Shown here: piece after piece, positions 5,630 to 64,000 of the stretch
How positions within the stretch are numbered: the first letter of the stretch is position 1
Layout of the letters: every line of letters begins with the position of its first letter
Source: Clostridia bacterium
GTDB taxonomy: Bacteria > Bacillota > Clostridia > Christensenellales > CAG-917
DNA: 64,000 bases
Assembly: GCA_045613765.1 (NCBI GenBank)
Contig: JAZLBO010000020.1
Location: forward strand, 5,193 to 69,192
Direction: 5' to 3'
Position numbers and translations under genes: made by a program
Notes under the pieces: model-generated
What the model was told of the DNA's origin: nothing
Seen by the model: only the letters and a program-made list of their open reading frames with translations
The model's database searches: none

Positions 5630-7432
5630 TCAGTCATCATCACCGACTTTGAGTATGGTGACAAATGCTTCACTGGGGATTTCTACGCTACCCACACGGC
5701 GCATACGCTTTTTGCCTTCTTTTTGCTTTTCAAGAAGTTTCTTCTTTCTTGTGATGTCACCACCATAGCACTTGGCAAGAACGTCTTTGCGCAATGCTTT
5801 GACTGTTTCTCTTGCAATAACCTTGCCACCGATTGCTGCTTGCACGGGGATTTCAAAAAGTTGACGGGGGATTGCATCTTTGAGTTTTTCTGCAATACCT
5901 CTGCCCCTTGCATAAGCCTTATCCTTGTGGACAATGATTGAGAGAGCGTCACACATATCTCCGTTGATGAGCATATCAAGGCGAACAAGGTCACTACGTT
6001 GATAACCTGCCATATCATAGTCGAGAGATGCGTAACCACGGGTACGTGATTTGAGTTTGTCAAAGAAATCATAAATGATTTCATTGAGAGGGATTGTATA
6101 AGTCAACTGAACACGGGTGGGATCAATATAACTCATATCTTCAAAGACACCACGCTTGTCTTGGCAAAGTTCCATGATTTGTCCCACATACTCTGGGGGT
6201 GTATATACGGTTGCTTTGACAACAGGTTCTTCAATATAATCAATTTCGCCTGCAGGGGGCAAGTTGGTGGGGTTTGACACCTCAAGTTTTTCCCCATTGG
6301 TTTTTGTGACGATATATTGAACGCTTGGTGCAGTTGTGATAATATCAAGGTCAAACTCTCTTTCAAGACGTTCTTCAATGATTTCCATGTGAAGAAGACC
6401 CAAAAAACCACATCTAAAACCAAAACCAAGTGCGAGTGATGCCTCTTGTTCAAAACTGATACTTGCATCATTAAGTTGCAGTTTCAAAAGTGCCTCTTTG
6501 AGATCGTTGTATCTTGCGCCGTCTGCAGGGAAAATGCCAGTGTAAACCATTGGCGTTGCCTTTTTATATCCGGGGAGAGGCTCTTTGGAAGGATTGTCAA
6601 CTCTTGTGATTGTGTCGCCGACTGCTGTATCTGACACGTTTTTGATGCTTGCACCAATATAACCGACTTCCCCTGCCTCAAGTTTGCCAGTTGATTTCAT
6701 ATTGGGTGAAAATACGCCAACTTCAACAACGTCAAACTCTTTGCCCGTTGACATCATACGTATTCTATCTCCAACACTGACTGTGCCGTCAACAATACGA
6801 ACCATTGAGATTGCGCCACGATAATTGTCGTAGAAACTGTCAAAGATGAGTGCTTTCAAGGGTGCATCTTTATCGCCCTTGGGTGCAGGAAGTTTTTCTA
6901 TGATTGCAGTGAGAACATCATCAACACCAATGCCTTCTTTTGCAGAAATAAGGGGGCAACCGTCGGTGTCAAGACCGATAATATCTTCGATCTCTGCCTT
7001 TGCGCCGTCAATATCTGCAGATGCAAGGTCAATTTTGTTGATGACAGGTATGATTTCAAGATCGTTGTCAAGAGCAAGATACACGTTGGAGAGGGTTTGT
7101 GCCTCTACGCCTTGTGTTGCATCGACAACCAAAAGTGCGCCCTCACAAGCAGCGAGAGAGCGAGATACTTCGTAAGTAAAGTCCACGTGTCCCGGGGTGT
7201 CAATAAGGTTGAGCGTATATTCCTCCCCGTTGTGTTTGTGGAAAAGACGGCAAGTTTGAAGTTTGATTGTTATGCCTCTTTCCTTTTCGATATCCATATT
7301 GTCAAGAAGTTGGCTTGACATATCGCGGGCAGCAACAGTCCCCGTCTTTTCAATAAGACGGTCTGCGAGAGTGCTTTTGCCGTGGTCAATGTGGGCTATA
7401 ATTGAAAAATTGCGAATCTTATCTAAATTCAA
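5630..7432 (-). CDS. lepA: Elongation factor 4 (LepA)
   Basis: 600 aa. Contains [28 protein letters not shown] and NKID motifs, plus the LepA-specific C-terminal domain. Confidence 0.97.
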
Positions 7433-34488: not shown

Positions 34489-37400
34489 CTAAATCTTCTT
34501 CACTGACAACGTGACTTTGTCGCCATTTATGTCAAGTGCCTTTGTATATCCGTCAACTTCGGTTGAAATCTTATCGCAAAGGACGTCTGCCAAGAAACTG
34601 CCACTTTCAAGGACTTCAAGTGCAAGGCCTGTTGCCTCGTAGCCGATTGCGATATGGTCAACAACTTCAAAACCTGCCTCTTTGCGCATTGTTTGGATCT
34701 TGCTGACAAGTTCTCTTTCAACGCCTTCACGGATGAGTTCATCATTGAGTTCTGTGTCAAGGACAACTGTTGTTTCGCCGTCGCTTTCTGCAGAGAAACC
34801 TTCTCTATTTTGCACTGAAATCAAAACGTCATCTTCTGTGAGTTCGATTGTCTTGCCGTCAACATCTCTTGTAAAGACACCACCGTCTTTCACTGCAAGG
34901 ACGATTTCTTTGCCGTCATTTGCCATGATTTCACGGATCTTGCCAAGGAGTGCGCCATATTTGGGGCCCAATGTCTTGAGTTGGGGCTTGACAATGTATG
35001 TCACATAGTCTGCACTGCCGTCACTGATTTCAACTTCTTTGACGTTGAGTTCATCTTCAACAAGTGCTTTGAGTTCATCACTCAAATCGTTCTTGCCGTT
35101 GTAGATAAGTCTGGGCAAAGGTTGACGATTCTTGATATTTGCCTTGTTTCTTGCTGCTCTGCCAAGGACAACAACCTTCAACACGTCATCCATACCCTTT
35201 TCAAGTGCGCTGTCAATATACTTTTCGTCTGCTTCGGGGAAGGTGCAGAGATGTACGCTCAAAGGTGCGTTTTCGTCAAAGTTGCGCACAAGGTTTTGAT
35301 AGATATTTTCTGCCACGAAAGGCACGTAAGGTGCGATAATCTTTGACAAGGTTGCAAGGACTGTGTAGAGAGTTGTGTATGCTGCTTCCTTGTCGGGATT
35401 CATATCACTGCCCCAGAAACGTTCACGGCAACGACGGACGTACCAGTTGGAAAGATTGTCTGTGAATTCGGCAATCTTACGTGATGTTTCTGTGATCTTA
35501 TATTCGTTCAAACCTTCGTCAACAAACTTGATAAGGCTGTTGAGTTCGGACAAAATCCATCTGTCCATGACGCTCAATTTTTGGTCTTCAAGTTTATGTT
35601 CTGTGGGATTGAACTTGTCGATTTCGGCATACAATACGTAGAATGCGTAGGTATTCCACAATGTACCCATAAATTTACGTTGTGATTCGCTGACGTTATC
35701 TCCACTGAATCTTGAAGGCAACCAGGGTGCGCTTGCTGTGTAGAAATACCATCTTGTTGCATCTGCGCCTTGCTTGTCAAGGACTGACCAAGGATCAACC
35801 ACGTTGCCTTTGTGCTTTGACATCTTCACGCCGTCTTTGTCATTGACAAGGCCGAGAACGATACAGTTCTTGAAAGGTGCTTTGTCAAAGAGTACCGTTG
35901 AGATTGCAAGAAGTACGTAGAACCAACCACGTGTTTGGTCAACTGCTTCTGAGATGAAGTCTGCAGGGAATTCCTTCTCAAAGAGTTCCTTATTTTCAAA
36001 GGGATAGTGCCATTGTGCAAAGGGCATTGATCCACTGTCAAACCAACAGTCAAGGACTTCGGGTGTACGTTCAAAAGTGCCACCACATTCACAATCCCAC
36101 TTGACACCGTCAATGTAAGGTCTGTGAAGTTCAATATCGCTGTCAAGGTTGCCACACTTTCTCAGTTCTTCACGAGAGCCGATAACGTGGATCTTGCCAC
36201 ACTTGTTGCATACCCAGATGGGCAAAGGTGTGCCCCAATATCTTTCACGTGAGAAGCCCCAGTCAACAACGTTTTCAAGGAAGTTGCCCATACGGCCTGT
36301 GCCGATTGTTGAGGGCATCCAGTTGATTGATGCATTGTTTTTGAGAAGTTGGTCTTTGACTTCTGTCATCTTGATGAACCAACTTGAGCGTGCGTAGTAA
36401 AGCAAAGGTGTGTCACAGCGCCAGCAGAAAGGATAACTGTGTTCAAACATTTCTTCTTTGAACAACGTTCCGTTGGCTTTGAGCATACCAATGATGACTT
36501 TGTCTGCATCTTTGACAAACATACCTTCAAGGTCTTTTGCCTCGGGGATAAACTTGCCTCTTTCGTTGACCATTTGGACAAAAGGCAAATCATACTTTCT
36601 GCCAACTCTGCCGTCATCTTCACCAAATGCAGGTGCGATATGGACGATACCTGTGCCGTCTGTCAACGTGACGTAATCATCATTGACAACATAGTGTGCT
36701 TTCTTCTTTGCCCCTGTTTCATAGTTGAACAAAGGCTCGTATTCTGCATATTCATATTCCTTGCCTTTCTTGAGAGAAAGTCTTTCATAAGTGCCTTCTT
36801 CAAAGAGTTTTGCAACAAGTGCATCTGCAAGGATAAATCTTTCATCTTCCACTTTGATTTCTGCATAGTCTTCGTTTGCGTTCATACAAAGTGCAACGTT
36901 TGAAGGAAGTGTCCAAGGTGTTGTTGTCCAAGCAAGGAAATATCTGCCTTCTTCTCCCTTCAACTTGAATTTTGCATATACGGAAACTTCCTTCACGTCT
37001 TTGTAGCCTTGTGCCACTTCGTGTGATGAAAGTGCAGTTCCACAACGGGGACAATAGGGGACGATCTTGTAGCCTTTGTAGATAAGTCCTTTATCGTAGA
37101 TGGTCTTGAGTGCCCACCACACAGACTCAATGTAATTGTTGTCGTATGTGATGTAGGGTTCTTTCATATCTGCCCAGTAGCCGATACGGTCGGACATCTT
37201 TTCCCACTCGCTTGTATATTTCCACACAGATTCCTTACATTTTGCAATGAAGGGTTCTATGCCGTAGTTTTCAATTTCTTGCTTGCCGTCAATGCCGAGA
37301 AGTTTTTCAATTTCCAACTCAACGGGAAGTCCGTGTGTGTCCCAACCTGCTTTGCGAAGAACGTGATAGCCTTTCATGGTCTTGTAGCGAGGGATAATAT

Positions 37401-37596
37401 CCTTCATAACTCTTGTGAGAATATGACCAATGTGAGGTTTGCCGTTGGCTGTAGGGGGGCCATCATAAAAATTGAAGCCCTTTTTGCCTTCGTTGATTGC
37501 AACGCTCTTTTCAAAAACGTTGTTTTCCTTCCAGAAAGCAAGGACTTCCTTTTCTCTTTCAACAAAATTGAGATTTGTGTCAACTGGTTTGTACAT
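34489..37596 (-). CDS. ileS: Isoleucine--tRNA ligase (type 2, long form)
   Basis: 1035 aa. HIGH (PHIGH) and KMSKS (KMSKHKGN) motifs, a CP1 editing domain and a type-2 C-terminal extension. Confidence 0.97.
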   Translation of the reverse strand: MYKPVDTNLNFVEREKEVLAFWKENNVFEKSVAINEGKKGFNFYDGPPTANGKPHIGHILTRVMKDIIPRYKTMKGYHVLRKAGWDTHGLPVELEIEKLLGIDGKQEIENYGIEPFIAKCKESVWKYTSEWEKMSDRIGYWADMKEPYITYDNNYIESVWWALKTIYDKGLIYKGYKIVPYCPRCGTALSSHEVAQGYKDVKEVSVYAKFKLKGEEGRYFLAWTTTPWTLPSNVALCMNANEDYAEIKVEDERFILADALVAKLFEEGTYERLSLKKGKEYEYAEYEPLFNYETGAKKKAHYVVNDDYVTLTDGTGIVHIAPAFGEDDGRVGRKYDLPFVQMVNERGKFIPEAKDLEGMFVKDADKVIIGMLKANGTLFKEEMFEHSYPFCWRCDTPLLYYARSSWFIKMTEVKDQLLKNNASINWMPSTIGTGRMGNFLENVVDWGFSRERYWGTPLPIWVCNKCGKIHVIGSREELRKCGNLDSDIELHRPYIDGVKWDCECGGTFERTPEVLDCWFDSGSMPFAQWHYPFENKELFEKEFPADFISEAVDQTRGWFYVLLAISTVLFDKAPFKNCIVLGLVNDKDGVKMSKHKGNVVDPWSVLDKQGADATRWYFYTASAPWLPSRFSGDNVSESQRKFMGTLWNTYAFYVLYAEIDKFNPTEHKLEDQKLSVMDRWILSELNSLIKFVDEGLNEYKITETSRKIAEFTDNLSNWYVRRCRERFWGSDMNPDKEAAYTTLYTVLATLSKIIAPYVPFVAENIYQNLVRNFDENAPLSVHLCTFPEADEKYIDSALEKGMDDVLKVVVLGRAARNKANIKNRQPLPRLIYNGKNDLSDELKALVEDELNVKEVEISDGSADYVTYIVKPQLKTLGPKYGALLGKIREIMANDGKEIVLAVKDGGVFTRDVDGKTIELTEDDVLISVQNREGFSAESDGETTVVLDTELNDELIREGVERELVSKIQTMRKEAGFEVVDHIAIGYEATGLALEVLESGSFLADVLCDKISTEVDGYTKALDINGDKVTLSVKKI

Positions 37597-37644
37597 GTCT
37601 GTCTCTCCTGCACGTATGTGCGCGTTTTCTATATAATCGCAAAA

Positions 37645-37673
37645 ATTATATAATAGTTTATTAAATATTGCAA
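37645..37673 (-). promoter_or_regulatory. Sigma-A type promoter for ileS
   Basis: On the minus strand: TTGCAA (37673-37668), a 17-nt spacer and TATAAT (37650-37645). This leaves a leader of only about 40 nt before AGGAGAG and the ATG. Confidence 0.6.
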
Positions 37674-37729
37674 GTGAAAAATTAAAAACTAAAAAATTCC
37701 GTGCAAAAAGTAATGTAAATTTGAATTTT

Positions 37730-37850
37730 AAAAACTGTGATATTTAGATGCATGACGAGGAAAGAAAAAGCCCACGGATAGGCGCGTACTTGCCGTACGT
37801 AACTATTCGTGGGCTTGAACTTAACAAAGTCAGGCGCTAAATAGCAAACA
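37730..37850. repeat. Inverted-repeat-bounded structured element, copy 1
   Basis: Left end AAAAACTGTGATATTTAG and right end GCGCTAAATAGC. Central nested hairpin (CCCACGGA/TTCGTGGG around CGTAC-ttgcc-GTACG). On the minus strand the hairpin is followed by a T5 run. Confidence 0.65.
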
Positions 37851-37889
37851 CTAAACGTATTGCTGCTCTGAACATTTTTTAGGAACGCT

Positions 37890-38013
37890 TAAAAACTGCG
37901 ATATTTAGATGCATAGCAAGGAAGAAAAACCCACAGGGGTCGTGACATACTTGTCGTATGTGAGAATCCTGTGGGTTGTATCTGACGATGATAGGCGCTA
38001 AATAGCGCAGTTT
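37890..38013. repeat. Inverted-repeat-bounded structured element, copy 2
   Basis: Ends AAAAACTGCGATATTTAG and CTAAATAGCGCAGTTTTT are complementary at 17 of 18 positions. Central nested hairpin (CCCACAGG/CCTGTGGG around ACATAC-ttgtc-GTATGT). Copy offset is 161 nt. Confidence 0.7.
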
Positions 38014-40272
38014 TTACCTTTTGATGATTTTGTGGCCTGTCTTGGTCAACAACCAATGGGCATCATCAAGAAGTTGATAGTCATACTTGATGACGTCCTT
38101 TCTTTCTTCTGCTTGAAGAAGGGTTTCGTCTTCTCTCTTGTCCCTTTCTGCAACCATTTTTCTAAACTCAACGAGTCCATCAAAGGTTGTAAGATTACCA
38201 TGACGGCGCAACGTATAGTTTTTGCCGTTGGTATGCTTTTCAGTACCGTCTGCCATTGTGACAGTTTCTGTCAAGATTTGTTCCTTGCTTGCAGGCACTG
38301 TTCCCTTTGAAATCATATAGGAATTCCAACGATAGTGCTCGTGGATTGCCATATTCTTTCTTCTTGAATCTTTGAAGTCAAGGGTGTAGCCAATAATTGC
38401 CTTGCCGTCTGCAGTCACAGAGTATGCGCTCTTGTCGGGCATATCATTTTGGGCATAGATTTCAAGATATTCATCTTCTGTCAAAGCCTTGCCGTCTTCA
38501 TCTACTTTGCAATAGTCAAGCCCCATCATATTAAGTTTACTGCGAAGGCTCAATGCACAATAGATGTTGGACTCTCTTTCGTTTTGGGTTTTTCTTTGAT
38601 ACCAATCACGGTGTGCTTGCTTTTTGATTTCATCCACTCTTTCTTCAGTCAACTCTTTGCCGTCACTTGCCACTTCGTACTCAATGGCGTAAACAGCGTC
38701 ACGAAGACCTGCCATTTTGAATATATCGTCTGCAATTATGTTTTCAACGTCATAGACTTCATCTTCGCAAGCAATGATATAGTATCCTTCATTGTCCTTG
38801 ATGCCTTGACCGTGGTGGTTATCTCGTACTTTCACAAAGATGGTTGTGTTGTCCCCTTCCCACTCTTTGAGTTTGCCCAAAAGTTTCTTTGCCATATCCA
38901 CGTTTTCAAGATCACTGCCAAATGCAATGATGACAAAGTTGGCGTCATCACTTGACTTTGTAAGCACTGCCTTAATTTGATTGTAGAACTTTTGGTCATT
39001 GACGTCTAAGTGATGGAAGTTTTCACCCGCAGGATAACTGGGCAAAGGCAAGTATTTTTTGTCCTTGTCATCACGCTTTTCTTCTTCCTTGGCGATATGT
39101 TCAAACTCGTTCTTATATCTAAAATAGTTGTGGTTGAGATTTTTGTCATTGACAGAGCAATCGCACTTGTCTATGGTGTGTTCATCAACAAAGCACTTGT
39201 CAAAAAGATGATAGTTGACCTTCTTCAGTTCAACACCATCTGCACCTTGTGAGATAAATTGATTGTTGGCAACAGAGGTCAAGAAAAGTTGTTGATTTGT
39301 CCTGCCAAAGCCCAACATAACGACGTTGATGTCAACCCCATTTTTTACACAAGACGTGGTATAATCTATATGTTTTGCATCCATAAACATTGTGTATGGA
39401 TATTTTGATGCAAAATTGACTGCCATTTTTTGATATTTGTTGACGTAGGAAATGACACCTTTTCCGTCTTCAACAACTTCTTCATAGATGGCTTCAAATT
39501 TGGGGTCACCAAACAAATAGACTGCAACGTTGTCAAATACTTCAACTTGCTTTTCGGGGGCAAGTTTTGAAAACTCGCTTGTAAATTGTCTTGCAATTTC
39601 AAGGTTTCTTTCATCATCTTTCGTGTTGATGATGACGGTGATTTTCTCTTGTCTTTTCACTTGACTGCCTGCAAGTTTTGTGATGTAGTTGTCTGTTGAA
39701 TTTACTTTTGTGTATGCGATATTTTCAATGTAAAGTGAGAGTGCATCATCACTTGAAATATTGTCAACAATGACCTTTGCCCTTGCTTTTTCACTGGCAT
39801 AAATCTTGTAGTTTTGCTCATTATTGCCAAAGATAACAAGTTTATTTTTGCTATATTTTACACGTTGATTTGTTATGAAATTCCAGAGATATTGACTGAC
39901 AAGGGACAACGCAAAAAGCACAACGTTGACACATACAAGTGCAAATGAAAAGTATATTGCAAAGTTGTACAAAGGATTTGCGCTTGCAAGTGCTTCCACT
40001 GCCCCAACATTGAACTTCAATACAACGGAATCCATAATCAATGGTATTGCATTGATGAAGCCGTCAAGGATTGATTGACCACTGTAAATCAAGCCAATCC
40101 AGAACAACGGGAACACACAGATGTAGATGAGCACTATTCTGCCCTTTTTGTAGTCACGGAGATAGTTGACTTTGTCTTCACGATTCTTTTTGAGCAAGCC
40201 AAAGAACACCGAAACCAAGCCGATAATCATTGCCGTAAGACAAAGTGATGTGATTATGTAATATGGTGTCAT
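38014..40272 (-). CDS. Uncharacterised membrane protein: N-terminal multi-TM region, two RCK/TrkA-N-like Rossmann segments and a C-terminal RyR-like segment
   Basis: Probable start at ATG 40272 (GAGG RBS); the track extends to GTG 40320. About four TM helices. KLVIFGNN...ITVIINTKDDERNLEIA and NVVMLGFGRTNQQ...FVIIAFGSDLENVDMA resemble RCK N-domains. AIHEHYRWNSYM...RHGNLTTFDGL resembles the RyR-domain signature. No K+ selectivity filter was seen. Confidence 0.5.
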   Translation of the reverse strand: MTPYYIITSLCLTAMIIGLVSVFFGLLKKNREDKVNYLRDYKKGRIVLIYICVFPLFWIGLIYSGQSILDGFINAIPLIMDSVVLKFNVGAVEALASANPLYNFAIYFSFALVCVNVVLFALSLVSQYLWNFITNQRVKYSKNKLVIFGNNEQNYKIYASEKARAKVIVDNISSDDALSLYIENIAYTKVNSTDNYITKLAGSQVKRQEKITVIINTKDDERNLEIARQFTSEFSKLAPEKQVEVFDNVAVYLFGDPKFEAIYEEVVEDGKGVISYVNKYQKMAVNFASKYPYTMFMDAKHIDYTTSCVKNGVDINVVMLGFGRTNQQLFLTSVANNQFISQGADGVELKKVNYHLFDKCFVDEHTIDKCDCSVNDKNLNHNYFRYKNEFEHIAKEEEKRDDKDKKYLPLPSYPAGENFHHLDVNDQKFYNQIKAVLTKSSDDANFVIIAFGSDLENVDMAKKLLGKLKEWEGDNTTIFVKVRDNHHGQGIKDNEGYYIIACEDEVYDVENIIADDIFKMAGLRDAVYAIEYEVASDGKELTEERVDEIKKQAHRDWYQRKTQNERESNIYCALSLRSKLNMMGLDYCKVDEDGKALTEDEYLEIYAQNDMPDKSAYSVTADGKAIIGYTLDFKDSRRKNMAIHEHYRWNSYMISKGTVPASKEQILTETVTMADGTEKHTNGKNYTLRRHGNLTTFDGLVEFRKMVAERDKREDETLLQAEERKDVIKYDYQLLDDAHWLLTKTGHKIIKR

Positions 40273-40364
40273 ATTTACCTCATGCCCTATGTTTTCGGGC
40301 AAAAATTCTTCAAAAAACACATAAATCCACCATTACAGTGGATTTACGATTGATACTATTATAA

Positions 40365-41299: not shown

Positions 41300-41570
41300 T
41301 CGCTGTGCTAGATGGGGAGTTGGCGGTGCCCTGTAAACTGCAATCCGCCATAGCAGTATTGAACACCGATCGAGGCCTTCCATATGGTTGGTCGCACCAA
41401 ACAAGGAATGTTGATATCAAGGTCCGATGCAACACCGTGTCGTGAACCGTGTCAGGGCCTGACCGCAGCAGCACTAAGCGAATTTCGGCGTGTGCCATCG
41501 GGAAGCTTTGAAGGAGTCACCTATTTGGTTTCCACTTCGGTGTGGATTGTCGGAATCGGCGCACAGTATT
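41300..41570 (+). ncRNA. ffs: Signal recognition particle RNA, large Bacillus type (with Alu domain)
   Basis: Recalled similarity to B. subtilis scRNA: GCTGTGCTAGATGGGGAGTTGGCGGTGCCCTGTAAACTGCAATCCGCC at the 5' Alu domain, and CCGTGTCAGGGCCTGACCGCAGCAGCACTAAGCG (domain IV, helix 8). The 5' CTGTGC pairs with the 3' GCACAG. The ends are approximate. Confidence 0.85.
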
Positions 41571-41581
41571 TTGCAAGAAAC

Positions 41582-41611
41582 AAGGAGTCTATTGACTCCT
41601 TTTTCTTTTTT
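41582..41611 (+). terminator. Intrinsic terminator after the SRP RNA
   Basis: Stem AAGGAGTC/GACTCCTT followed by TTTTCTTTTTT. Confidence 0.8.
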
Positions 41612-41649
41612 GTGTTTAAAAATGGAGTGAGTGCGAACATATCAATTTA

Positions 41650-41958
41650 GGATTCCCCCTTTCCTCATGTGTTTCCCCCCATTGGCTTCGCCAAGCCCTA
41701 CGGGCAGGGGCAACTCGACGCGATTGACTTCGTAGCAATCGCTATTCCGTCACTTTGTTCCTTACGGCACGCGCACATTAAGTGCCGTTCTCTCATTATG
41801 TCACTTGCCACTTGGGTGGGGAAAATATGATCCCCAAGTGGCTGGCGTACTTTCGTCTGGTGCTTGGCACTCGCTTTCTCGCCACCCTGTGGCTCGCGTT
41901 CCGTCCTTAAACGAGTGAGTGCTTGTATAAGTACCCCACGAACTTGCCGTAGTGCACA
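41650..41958. ncRNA. Candidate structured non-coding region of unassigned class
   Basis: No credible ORF. Noticeably more GC-rich than the surroundings. Several strong local hairpins: GCGATTG/CAATCGC 41720-41742, ACGGCAC/GTGCCGT 41764-41788, CCACTTGGG/CCCAAGTGG 41808-41841 and GCCAC/GTGGC 41881-41893. Bounded by terminators. Strand not determined. Confidence 0.3.
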
Positions 41959-41986
41959 AAAAACTGCGCTAAATAGCGCAGTTTTT
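41958..41986. terminator. Perfect palindromic hairpin sharing the end sequence of the 37.7-38.0 kb elements
   Basis: AAAAACTGCGCT-aaat-AGCGCAGTTTTT. A 12-bp stem with A and T runs on either side. Confidence 0.65.
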
Positions 41987-41987
41987 G

Positions 41988-42019
41988 AAAAAGGGTGCTC
42001 GTCTTGAGCACCCTTTTTG
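41988..42019. terminator. Bidirectional intrinsic terminator after the EF-G paralog
   Basis: AAAAAGGGTGCTC-gtctt-GAGCACCCTTTTT. Confidence 0.8.
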
Positions 42020-62383: not shown

Positions 62384-62425
62384 ATTATGCATTATACTTT
62401 TGCAAATTTCATAATCGACGTTTTA

Positions 62426-64000
62426 TTACCATATAATAAGACGTTTATCTTCTGAAATGTACATTTTGTCTGTTTCCTTGACGTCAAATGTTTCATACCA
62501 CTCTTTGAAGTTTCTGGGAGGAATGTTTGCTCTCAAAATGCTGGGGCCGTGGACATCAACTGAAAGAAGAAGGGTGAGATATTCAGGCTTTGCCTTTTCG
62601 CACCATACTCTTGCCCAATTCTTGAAATATTCTTTAAATGATGCACCTTCTGTTCTTCTCATGATGTCAACTGTGACTGCCATACCACCATTGTCTGCCA
62701 TATTTTCGCTGACGATAAATCTGCCGTTGACTTTGCCCCAAGGAAGTTCAATGCCGTCAAATTGCTCTACCATTGCTTCAACCTTTTGGTCAAAACGCTT
62801 GAAGTCTTCGTCTGTCCACCAGTTGTTGATGTTGCCGTTTTCGTCACATTTTGCACCGTTTGAGTCAAATGCGTGTGAGATTTCGTGACCGATAACTGCG
62901 CCTATGCCACCAAGGTTTTCACTTCTTGATTGCTTGAGTGAATAGAAAGGTGCTTGCAAGATTGCTGCAGGGAAAGTGATGTCATTGACAAAAGGATCAT
63001 AGCAAGCATTGACCATGTGTCCGGGCATTGCCCAGTTTTCGGGATTGGTGGGCTTTGTAAGGCTTGCATAGTTGTCAAGTTCCTTGACCGCTTTGAGTTT
63101 GAGTTGAATATCAAAGAGTGAATCTTCGGGGTTGAAATCCATTTGTTCATAGATGTCTCTAACCTTGTCGGGATAACCGAGTTTGAGTCCCATCTTTGAG
63201 AGTTTGAGGATTGCCTTTTCTCTTGTTTCATCTCCAAGGATTTCGTTGGTCTTGATACGTTCTTTGTACGTGTCAACGATTTGACGGACGATTTCTGTGA
63301 TGTCTTTCTTTGCTTCTTCGCCAAAGTACTTTTCGCCGTAGTAGATGCCGACGGGTTCTGAGTACGTCATTGATGCAAGGTTGTATGCAAATTTTTCAAT
63401 AGATTGCATCTTTGCAACGCCCATAATTGCACGGTTGTACATACCACCCATATCACGAAGTTCTTCTGAAAGGTATGAACATGATTTCAAAAGACCTGTG
63501 ACATATGCCCAGTGCTTGTAAAGTTCAAGGTTTTCGCCGTTGAATACTGTTGCAAATGCGTTAAAATATCTGGGCTCTGTGACGACAACAATTGAGGGTA
63601 CTGTGCCAAACAAATCATTGAGCACTGCTGTAAAATTCATTGTTGAGAGGGTTGCGCTCATCTTGTCTGTGTCAACGGGGTTGTACATTTCAACGTACTT
63701 TGACCATTCTTCACGAGTTTTGACAAGACCACCAAGGATTGCGTCAAATGCAAGGGTGTCTGCGACGTACTTTTCTTGGTCTTCGGGTGTCAAATCTGTC
63801 TTTGACATAACCATCTTGGCAACGTTTGTCCAAATGCCCAAGATTTGTGCCTTTTGTGCCTCCATTTCGGACTTGTAGTATGATGCATCAGGAAGGATGA
63901 CGCCGGGGCCTTGAATATATGCAAGACGTTGTTTGGTGTTTTTCATATCTGTGTCTGCACCAATGTTGATGGGTGTGGGGATACCATTCAATGAAAGTGT
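62426..64000 (-). CDS. pepO: M13-family zinc metallopeptidase (neprilysin/PepO-like), N-terminus beyond the window edge
   Basis: HEISHAFD (HExxH) and ENMADNGG motifs. The frame stays open to position 64000, so the gene is truncated by the window. Confidence 0.9.
   Translation of the reverse strand, partial: TLSLNGIPTPINIGADTDMKNTKQRLAYIQGPGVILPDASYYKSEMEAQKAQILGIWTNVAKMVMSKTDLTPEDQEKYVADTLAFDAILGGLVKTREEWSKYVEMYNPVDTDKMSATLSTMNFTAVLNDLFGTVPSIVVVTEPRYFNAFATVFNGENLELYKHWAYVTGLLKSCSYLSEELRDMGGMYNRAIMGVAKMQSIEKFAYNLASMTYSEPVGIYYGEKYFGEEAKKDITEIVRQIVDTYKERIKTNEILGDETREKAILKLSKMGLKLGYPDKVRDIYEQMDFNPEDSLFDIQLKLKAVKELDNYASLTKPTNPENWAMPGHMVNACYDPFVNDITFPAAILQAPFYSLKQSRSENLGGIGAVIGHEISHAFDSNGAKCDENGNINNWWTDEDFKRFDQKVEAMVEQFDGIELPWGKVNGRFIVSENMADNGGMAVTVDIMRRTEGASFKEYFKNWARVWCEKAKPEYLTLLLSVDVHGPSILRANIPPRNFKEWYETFDVKETDKMYISEDKRLIIW

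Follow-up and report, generated by a model that had tools for sequence, protein, structure and literature searches.

The window analysed here, a 64,000-nt stretch of the Clostridia bacterium contig JAZLBO010000020.1, carries a pair of palindromic elements between two minus-strand genes. Upstream of the pair lies an open reading frame (ORF) of 768 aa (38014..40320; 752 aa if counted from the first ATG), and downstream lies ileS (37596..34489). The two elements belong to a family of palindromic repeats that had not been catalogued before. We suggest that each is probably a nested intrinsic terminator, or 3'-end hairpin, which is used by the host at gene ends and which has spread by recombination between its conserved ends, by tandem duplication or by another route.

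Two copies of the element in front of ileS

The pair forms a direct repeat of 118 nt (37728-37845 and 37889-38006, 71% identity), with 161 nt from start to start. The initial annotation of this DNA had described two tandem elements at this distance, placed after the stop codon of the 752-aa gene and before the ileS promoter, with complementary ends, central hairpins that differ by double changes and a T-tract after each hairpin on the minus strand. All of this is borne out, see Table 1. In copy 2, the outer arms TAAAAACTGCGATATTTAG and CTAAATAGCGCAGTTTTTA are 95% complementary over 19 nt. Copy 1 retains just 10 nt of its right end, and its gene-proximal end has degenerated to CTAAATAGCAAACAC (plus strand). 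The ends are inverted repeats of 18-19 nt, 89-95% complementary, that enclose a short non-coding core.

Each window copy folds as one hairpin of about 55 bp (z -5.8 to -9.3), and none of 200 shuffled sequences folds as well, on either strand. For copy 2, the minimum free energy (MFE) is -55.8 kcal/mol on the plus strand and -47.9 kcal/mol on the minus strand, with z of -8.3 and -9.3, respectively. On the minus strand, i.e., within the transcript of the upstream gene, copy 2 reads TAAAAACTGCGCTATTTAGCG ... central hairpin ... TTTTTCTTCC ... CATCTAAATATCGCAGTTTTTA. The T-tract TTTTTCTT(C/T) follows each central hairpin on this strand, and is seen both in the sequence itself and in a scan for terminator-like sites.

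Table 1. Positions of the elements, their parts and related features (window coordinates unless a locus number, L, is given; L numbers denote loci in other genomes).
Feature	Position	Strand	Evidence or remark
Copy 2, gene-proximal, intact	37890..38016	-	covariance model, 125.4 bits; the plus strand is the model's 'canonical' orientation
Copy 1, distal	37729..37854	-	covariance model, 102.5 bits; subfamily other than that of copy 2
Inter-copy spacer	37855..37889	.	outside both covariance-model matches
Copy 2 central GC-rich hairpin AACCCACAGG ... CCTGTGGGTT, inner stem ACATAC/GTATGT	37928..37977	-	inverted repeat of 10 nt, 100% complementary; folds
Copy 2 U-rich tract TTTTTCTTCCT (minus strand), directly 3' of the central hairpin	37919..37929	-	sequence; terminator-like site scan
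Copy 1 central hairpin AAGCCCACGGATAGGCGCGTAC / GTACGTAACTATTCGTGGGCTT	37768..37816	-	inverted repeat of 22 nt, 82% complementary; folds
Copy 1 U-rich tract TTTTTCTTTCC (minus strand), 3' of the central hairpin	37759..37769	-	sequence; terminator-like site scan
TAA stop of the 768-aa ORF	38014..38016	-	overlaps the end of copy 2; its AA opens the A-run of the element
Promoter-like site of ileS, TTGCAA-17-TATAAT	37645..37673	-	just downstream of the element pair
Core-less 'solo' form AAAAACTGCGCTAAATAGCGCAGTTTTT	41958..41986	.	both element ends fused; perfect 12-bp hairpin between A5-6 and T5-6
Other copies of the second non-coding family	L034 3375-3746; L016 1020-1300; L006 1285-1527; L007 340-560; L009 3806-4024; L029 12-177

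A family of repeats in uncultured Clostridia

A scan of 185,579 genomes, one per species, with the pattern ACTGYGMTATTTAG-N75-105-CTAAATAGC finds full copies at 39 loci in about 17 metagenome-assembled genomes (MAGs). All host MAGs are from uncultured Clostridia of the gut or rumen and carry the labels 'Christensenella sp.', Clostridiales or Firmicutes CAG. The pattern detects 1-8 loci per MAG. A covariance model was built on 41 copies, and with a threshold of E < 1e-14 it identifies 56 confident copies at 46 sites. The sites comprise 29 single copies, 14 doubles, two triples and one quadruple array; thus, the tandem pair of the window is typical of the family. The suggestion of a small structured repeat family, made from the window alone, is therefore upheld. 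No copies were found in the phage, plasmid and viral-contig collections searched.

Rfam scans, which the initial annotation had proposed, cover the window and five of the loci at the gathering level and give no match on the elements. At the level of E-values there are just a weak match to LOOT RNA (RF03000) and matches to microRNA-like long-hairpin models. LOOT is the only model with a weak full-length match to copy 2, via the AAAAACCC...GGGUU central stem. However, the score is 21.2 bits against a gathering threshold of 46.4, and the LOOT model consists of four separate hairpins whereas the present element is a single long one. Both the LOOT and the microRNA-like matches were rejected on account of score and architecture.

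Conserved ends and a covarying core

The unit of about 125 nt forms one long imperfect hairpin in three parts. The outer stem is AU-rich and conserved in sequence, A4-5-CTGCGMTATTTAG / CTAAATAGCGCAG-T4-5. It is followed by a weakly paired middle zone, where mismatches are purine-purine on one strand and the other strand is U/C-rich, and by a GC-rich central hairpin whose sequence varies freely provided that the pairing is kept. In terms of sequence, the outer 35 nt or so of each side, (A)4-5 CTGCGATATTTAGATGAAGAAC... and ...GTTATTCGCTAAATAGCGCAG (T)4-5, are conserved, the ends across 41-56 copies. The central 50 nt or so are nearly wholly different between subfamilies, and are still paired.

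In the covariance-model alignment, standard pairs occupy 95.5% of the cells, compared with 82% after shuffling. Changes on both sides are found in 24 of the 33 pairs, and none of 500 shuffles attains any of the measures. If the partner is slid by 1-3 columns, the pairing falls to 29-45%. The L015 array has GTTCGCCAAACAG/CTGTTTGGCGGAC and CCTAAGGGCG/CGCTCTTAGG in place of the usual ends, so the outer stems covary too. The covariation first noticed between the two window copies persists when many copies are aligned. One point was missed in the original reading, though. The differences between the two copies do preserve the pairing, but copy 2 belongs to the widespread CCCACAGGGGTCGT type, with 96-99% identity to copies in other genomes (L016, L032, L024, L006), and the nearest relative of copy 1 is L038 (85% identity). 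As the copies come from different subfamilies, their 'compensatory' differences reflect separate lineages and not stepwise change in place. A small ORF was also considered, as a conserved ATG in AGATGAAGAAC opens 8-30 codons. Its length is not conserved and there is no Shine-Dalgarno sequence, and a coding role was rejected.

The mismatches are strongly biased. There are about nine per element, and on the plus strand of the window, which is antisense to the genes, 532 are purine-purine and 37 pyrimidine-pyrimidine; the mismatches of the internal loops on this strand are AG (263), GA (126) and AA (116). Such conserved, purine-rich loops could belong to a functional structured RNA made from the plus strand, or to a protein-binding module in the 3' untranslated region (3'-UTR), where the loops and an apical GTAC...GTACGTGAG motif would be bound by a trans-acting factor and highly expressed genes would form the regulon. 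In agreement with this, the apical region has invariant positions, a U.G pair is kept in 55 of the 56 copies, the plus strand is 8-12 kcal/mol more stable in the subfamily of the window, and the copies are enriched behind highly expressed genes, see below. However, the coding sequence abuts the element, so that at most sites there is no room for a plus-strand promoter, and no promoter-like site was found on this strand in the window. A core that is free to vary, with different cores within one genome, wobble counts that show no strand preference and the lack of any Rfam match also speak against a structured RNA or 3'-UTR module, which we consider improbable.

Alternatively, the pairing could matter in the DNA itself, as a cruciform or hairpin that serves as a recognition site for a recombinase (attC-like), for nucleoid proteins, for gyrase or for other DNA-binding proteins, cf. 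the BIMEs of E. coli; it could then be maintained by, for example, template switching in quasi-palindromes. The balance of G.T and A.C mismatches is what is expected if neither RNA strand is favoured. The units of about 125 nt, with an imperfect dyad, conserved asymmetries (one A.G mismatch and one bulged A) and a position at ORF ends, are what we take to be reminiscent of attC/VCR sites, and like BIMEs they occur in mosaic arrays with other small modules. On inspection, however, the ends AAAAACTG ... CAGTTTTT do not fit the attC core sites RYYYAAC / GTTRRRY. The neighbours are housekeeping genes and not cassettes, and no integrase-like repeated ORF was found nearby. An integron attC was therefore rejected. 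Other DNA-level sites would leave both the strand-specific U-tract and the strict orientation to the upstream gene unexplained, and we give this explanation as a whole the smallest chance of those considered. Readings as a retron, as a k-turn (C/D-box-like) or as a DNA-uptake sequence were set aside, since their defining features are absent.

The elements are fused to stop codons

The orientation relative to the upstream gene is identical at every site. At about 35 sites, a long ORF has a stop codon whose last base lies between -1 and +5 nt from the first base of the element. This stop is TAA in all but one case, and mostly its AA starts the A-run of the element. The mRNA of the upstream gene runs from the TAA directly into the element. 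The gene-end context seen in the window is thus strict in the family as a whole. The initial annotation had noticed neither the fixed orientation and the fusion to stop codons nor the preference for highly expressed genes described below. Within an array, the gene-proximal end is intact only in the copy next to the gene; the distal copies are degenerate there, like copy 1 of the window. The downstream gene is convergent at 18 of the 33 scorable sites and co-directional at the other 15.

Upstream genes confirmed by Pfam encode ribosomal protein L1 (rplA, 4 species), L7/L12 (rplL), GroEL, [FeFe] hydrogenase (hydA), class II aldolase (fba), rubrerythrin, PyrH and a DUF1292 protein. GAPDH (gap, 9 species), PNPase (pnp), DnaN, GuaB and several less obvious proteins were recognised as probable further cases from their sequences. 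Highly expressed genes are over-represented upstream of the elements, and the orthologous sites at gap, rplA and hydA are occupied in many species. Among the bacterial repeats described so far, a fusion to the stop codons of highly expressed genes with nucleotide precision is uncommon. In a poorly studied group of uncultured gut Clostridia, the family is a marker of gene ends, and a model of it would improve the annotation of transcription-unit boundaries in their MAGs.

A terminator-like signature on the sense strand

In the gene-sense strand, 48 of the 56 copies have a GC-rich stem base and directly behind it a stretch of 8 nt with at least 5 U, compared with 6 of 56 for the opposite strand. 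The elements thus have the hallmark of an intrinsic terminator, with a U-tract directly behind a GC-rich hairpin in the transcribed strand, although the stem is much longer than usual. Due to the purine-purine mismatches of the antisense strand, the U/C tract of the sense strand is only loosely paired. The whole hairpin closes with U4-5, and the same is true for the opposite strand. In the window, the scan finds no minus-strand terminator-like site other than the elements between the stop of the 768-aa ORF and the ileS promoter. In the syntenic locus L042 (ileS 86% identical at the nucleotide level), an ordinary short terminator and no elements are found at the same place, before the promoter region, which is conserved from about the -10 box onward.

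We suggest that the inner hairpin and its U-tract would stop most transcripts, and that the full hairpin with its U4-5 would catch read-through as well as transcripts that enter from the other side. At the same time, the mRNA could be shielded from 3' exonucleases by its structured end. At the locus studied here, the pair of elements would keep transcription of the 768-aa gene from reaching the ileS promoter.

Several observations weigh against a role as terminator. In L008, L018 and L035, an ordinary terminator is present after the gap element, which is thus not the sole terminator there. Both the size of the hairpin (60-100 nt) and a U-tract that is interrupted by C or G are atypical of terminators in Firmicutes. 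Part of the U-tract pairs with the 5' arm in full-length folds, and likewise in the MFE structure of the 'nascent' sense RNA. The counts of G.U (G.T) and A.C are balanced, 133 against 117, and the plus strand, antisense to the genes, has the somewhat better fold in 29 of 40 copies, so that the sense RNA is not favoured by the base-pair evidence. Processes at the DNA level can likewise produce covariation in a palindrome, and a terminator role alone is no explanation for the strong conservation of the ends. Finally, that transcripts are terminated and stabilised here in vivo is something we infer from sequence alone.

Turnover and spread of the copies

At the orthologous gap site, the coding sequence is on average 91% identical and third codon positions 77%, compared with 87-91% for the arms of the element and 68% for its middle. 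Two pairs of species with gap genes that are 97-98% identical have quite different cores. Thus, the cores are replaced faster than point substitution would allow. Conversely, clusters of at least 95% identity unite non-orthologous sites in different genomes. One such cluster contains the copy behind the 768-aa gene of the window, those of corA-like and pepO in RGIG5583 and that of adh-like in T1900045493. Other clusters join gap in one species with rplA in two others, or gap and groEL in one species with hydA in another. Between the window and RGIG5583, the element is 97.6% identical but the flanking genes just 78-79%.

Two loci give hints of how this might happen. The copy at L036 3854-3979 is chimeric. 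Its left arm is of the GGCACTCTCAG type and its right arm of the CCTGTGGGTT type, two different subfamilies, and as a consequence its central stem is not fully paired; judging from its arms, this copy is evidence of recombination between copies. At L028, the units have an odd junction in common, which indicates tandem duplication. Copies could thus move or be exchanged by recombination between their conserved ends, by tandem duplication, or by a transposition route that leaves no target duplication. The family may also serve as a natural data set, since it offers one scaffold with dozens of different paired cores and orthologous sites across species. It could be used to study how long hairpins remain paired although they evolve faster than synonymous sites, and how repeats can be swapped between sites without classical transposition.

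No target-site duplication (TSD) was detected. In the 35 copies that retain both ends, direct repeats of 2-5 nt do not rise above the level of shuffled flank pairings at any boundary offset, although a TA duplication concealed in the A-run or T-run is possible. A search for empty sites was another idea of the initial annotation. A metagenome scan for the 768-aa protein gave eight homologues with 51-61% identity, of which L042 alone is syntenic; none of the eight loci has the element, and they provide one functional comparison but no clean empty site. Behind the pepO-like gene, the blastn alignment shows just a gap of 30 nt in the window (62415-62445), along with the shared bidirectional terminator, but the orthologous site of RGIG5583 (L032 2066-2496) contains an extra block of about 390 nt, a mosaic that comprises an entire element, pieces of two others and an additional terminator. 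This block defines no boundaries, and the site was rejected as evidence for an insertion boundary.

The main rival explanation is that the element is purely selfish, i.e., a non-autonomous mobile element, similar to REPINs or MITEs, whose transposase is encoded elsewhere, for example an HUH/Y1 enzyme acting on hairpins in single-stranded DNA. The position at stop codons would then result from a target preference and from the few places that compact genomes tolerate. The near-identical copies at non-orthologous sites of different species fit this well, and so does the variation in presence: L032 has a copy after pepO where the window has none, and the window has copies before ileS where L042 has none. 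The inverted ends are conserved, and the gene-proximal one also forms a short palindrome on its own. In its form, the solo hairpin (41958-41986) is similar to a REP singlet, the lack of a TSD is compatible with single-stranded DNA transposition of the Y1 type, and REPINs have a like pattern of conserved ends and compensating spacer (PMC3116915).

On the other hand, no transposase-like, integrase-like or within-genome repeated protein was found in the 318 kb around the copies, and no ORF with an HUH-Y motif is found there either, though this motif scan is a weak test. The copy number looks low, with a few to about ten loci in each MAG for the pattern used, and the family is absent from the phage, plasmid and viral collections as noted above. 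Furthermore, the orientation is 100% consistent, with a nucleotide-precise fusion to stop codons at about 35 sites, where REPINs are reported to be randomly placed; the orthologous gap, rplA and hydA sites are filled in many species, and the U-tract is conserved on one specific strand. A purely selfish element is in our view a minor but real possibility, and it is compatible with the terminator explanation, as the two are not exclusive.

Relation to known repeats

By analogy, the design of the element is closest to that of the pneumococcal SPRITE, and is also REPIN-like, so that it is best described as a terminator-like palindromic repeat specific to a lineage of uncultured gut Clostridia. SPRITE has AAAA/TTTT ends, a long duplex and a U-rich tract, and is present in about 30 copies near the 3' ends of coding sequences, with no TSD and no matching insertion sequence (IS) (PMC3049150). 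Both are Firmicute repeats of about 105-125 nt with low copy number, AAAA...TTTT termini and an unusually long duplex followed by a U-rich tract. Both lie near the 3' ends of coding sequences, are enriched between convergent genes, and have neither a detectable TSD nor an IS with matching ends. However, the hosts are from different lineages, and the likeness is one of described features. In contrast to SPRITE, the present family has a nested design, in which strongly conserved inverted ends of about 30 nt enclose a terminator-like hairpin. It also differs by an A-run fused to the stop codon, a strictly one-way orientation, tandem arrays and a hypervariable, covarying core.

REPINs consist of conserved inverted ends and a less conserved spacer with compensatory changes (Bertels & Rainey 2011, PMC3116915). 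The present family has the same arrangement, with a hairpin that is kept by compensatory changes in the spacer, and like REPINs it has solo forms and clusters, is extragenic and lacks a TSD. However, REPINs are linked to a RAYT transposase, reach hundreds of copies, are reported to have a random extragenic placement and occur mainly in Proteobacteria, whereas the present copies look few, are anchored to stop codons and have one orientation. A RAYT was not found, as far as a weak HUH...Y motif scan of the fetched ORFs can tell.

It can be speculated that the element is a Firmicute counterpart of REPIN-RAYT, or a dedicated 3'-UTR module bound by a conserved trans-acting factor, though we think this rather unlikely. 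If it were true, the conserved ends and purine-rich loops would be a recognition site, and the freely varying core would be exchanged between sites. Such a module would be placed exactly at the stops of those genes that have the highest expression (gap, fba, hydA, groEL, rplA, rplL, rubrerythrin), and would tie together the termination of translation, the termination of transcription and the stability of the mRNA throughout a regulon.

ERIC, Correia, RUP and bcr1 are MITE-like palindromes of a wider class (reviewed in PMC3184786). These are imperfect palindromes of about 100-160 nt, co-transcribed at gene 3' ends as long RNA stem-loops that can affect mRNA stability or termination, and in this they are similar to the present family. 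Classical MITEs, however, are flanked by a TSD (TA in many cases) and have a parent IS that shares their inverted repeats. In the present family no TSD was detected, nor any candidate for a parent IS in the 318 kb around the copies, and the family is confined to one clade of uncultured Clostridia. An ordinary bidirectional intrinsic terminator also has an A-tract, a hairpin and a T-tract directly after the gene, and the solo copy has exactly this form. However, ordinary terminators of unrelated genes or species have no sequence in common, and their stems are about 5-14 bp, compared with about 55 bp in the present family.

Among the classes named in the initial annotation, a REP/REPIN-like element and a terminator module are thus best supported, a classical MITE is weakened because no TSD was found, and a trans-acting small RNA received no specific support. 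Membership is not established for MITEs (no TSD), REPINs (no RAYT shown, and a placement that is not random), attC sites (core sites absent) or any Rfam family.

The solo hairpin, adjoining modules and neighbouring genes

A third site in the window is found about 4 kb from the pair. The 21-mer GCGCTAAATAGCGCAGTTTTT of the right end has an exact second occurrence at 41966-41986 (chance expectation 0), within the perfect hairpin of the solo form. The covariance model scores the solo form at 25 bits, with the whole core deleted. It lies directly after the ordinary terminator (41987-42018) of a minus-strand gene of 687 aa, and looks like a bidirectional terminator in its form. The 21-mer and the hairpin had been noted before, together with the fragment CCCACGAACTTGCCGTA, which was thought to resemble the core of copy 1. 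That last part could not be demonstrated, as the fragment lies at the edge of a separate multi-copy non-coding sequence at 41620-41942.

This sequence, in minus-strand reading, is a second conserved non-coding family of about 200-330 nt, and lies between the solo hairpin and the terminator of the signal recognition particle (SRP) RNA. The SRP RNA itself (bacterial large) is at 41303-41566 on the plus strand, with its own terminator at 41578-41612. The second family is modular, with blocks containing GCACTCAC, GCGAGAAAGCGAGTGCC and GAGGGGAAACACGTGAGGAAGGGGTGG, and in several genomes it adjoins the palindromic elements in either relative orientation. It has no Rfam match and its folding signal is weak (z -2). 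At L017 3736-3914 and L011 7401-7530, a hairpin module of about 50 nt, GTGACGGAATAGCGATTG...CAATCGCGTC, sits within one arm of the palindromic element, which becomes a branched element of 179 nt. The second family contains this module, too, as an optional block; thus, the region is a BIME-like mosaic of small modules.

Other short motifs and known RNAs are found beside the elements. In UBA7588 and UBA767 genomes, a short recurring hairpin motif, GCGCACTYATTAACGGAATGTGC, is present downstream of the gap element at L003 and L015, and in the left flank of the element at L013 and L040. In RGIG5583 and T1900045493, the left flanks (L007, L009, L025, L027, L029, L032, L034, L036, L038) contain a ...GCACTC(N)GC motif directly before the A-run of the distal end, and this motif is part of a conserved spacer of about 40 nt that separates tandem copies. 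A Gut-1 RNA is found at L015 7469-7549. At L028, the three-copy array behind the L1 gene lies in front of an L10 leader (6217-6353) that follows it directly.

In many Firmicutes, ileS is controlled by a T-box leader. The ileS leader of the window (within 37597-37673) is short, about 45 nt behind the promoter-like site, and no T-box is detected there by Rfam. The 768-aa ORF has no match in Pfam. Its homologues (51-61% identity) are found in varied, non-syntenic surroundings. For example, at L043 (2315 onward) the next ORF begins with MDYEIFISYKYSDENG..., which we take to resemble a TIR domain, and the 768-aa gene may belong to a mobile or defence-type locus.

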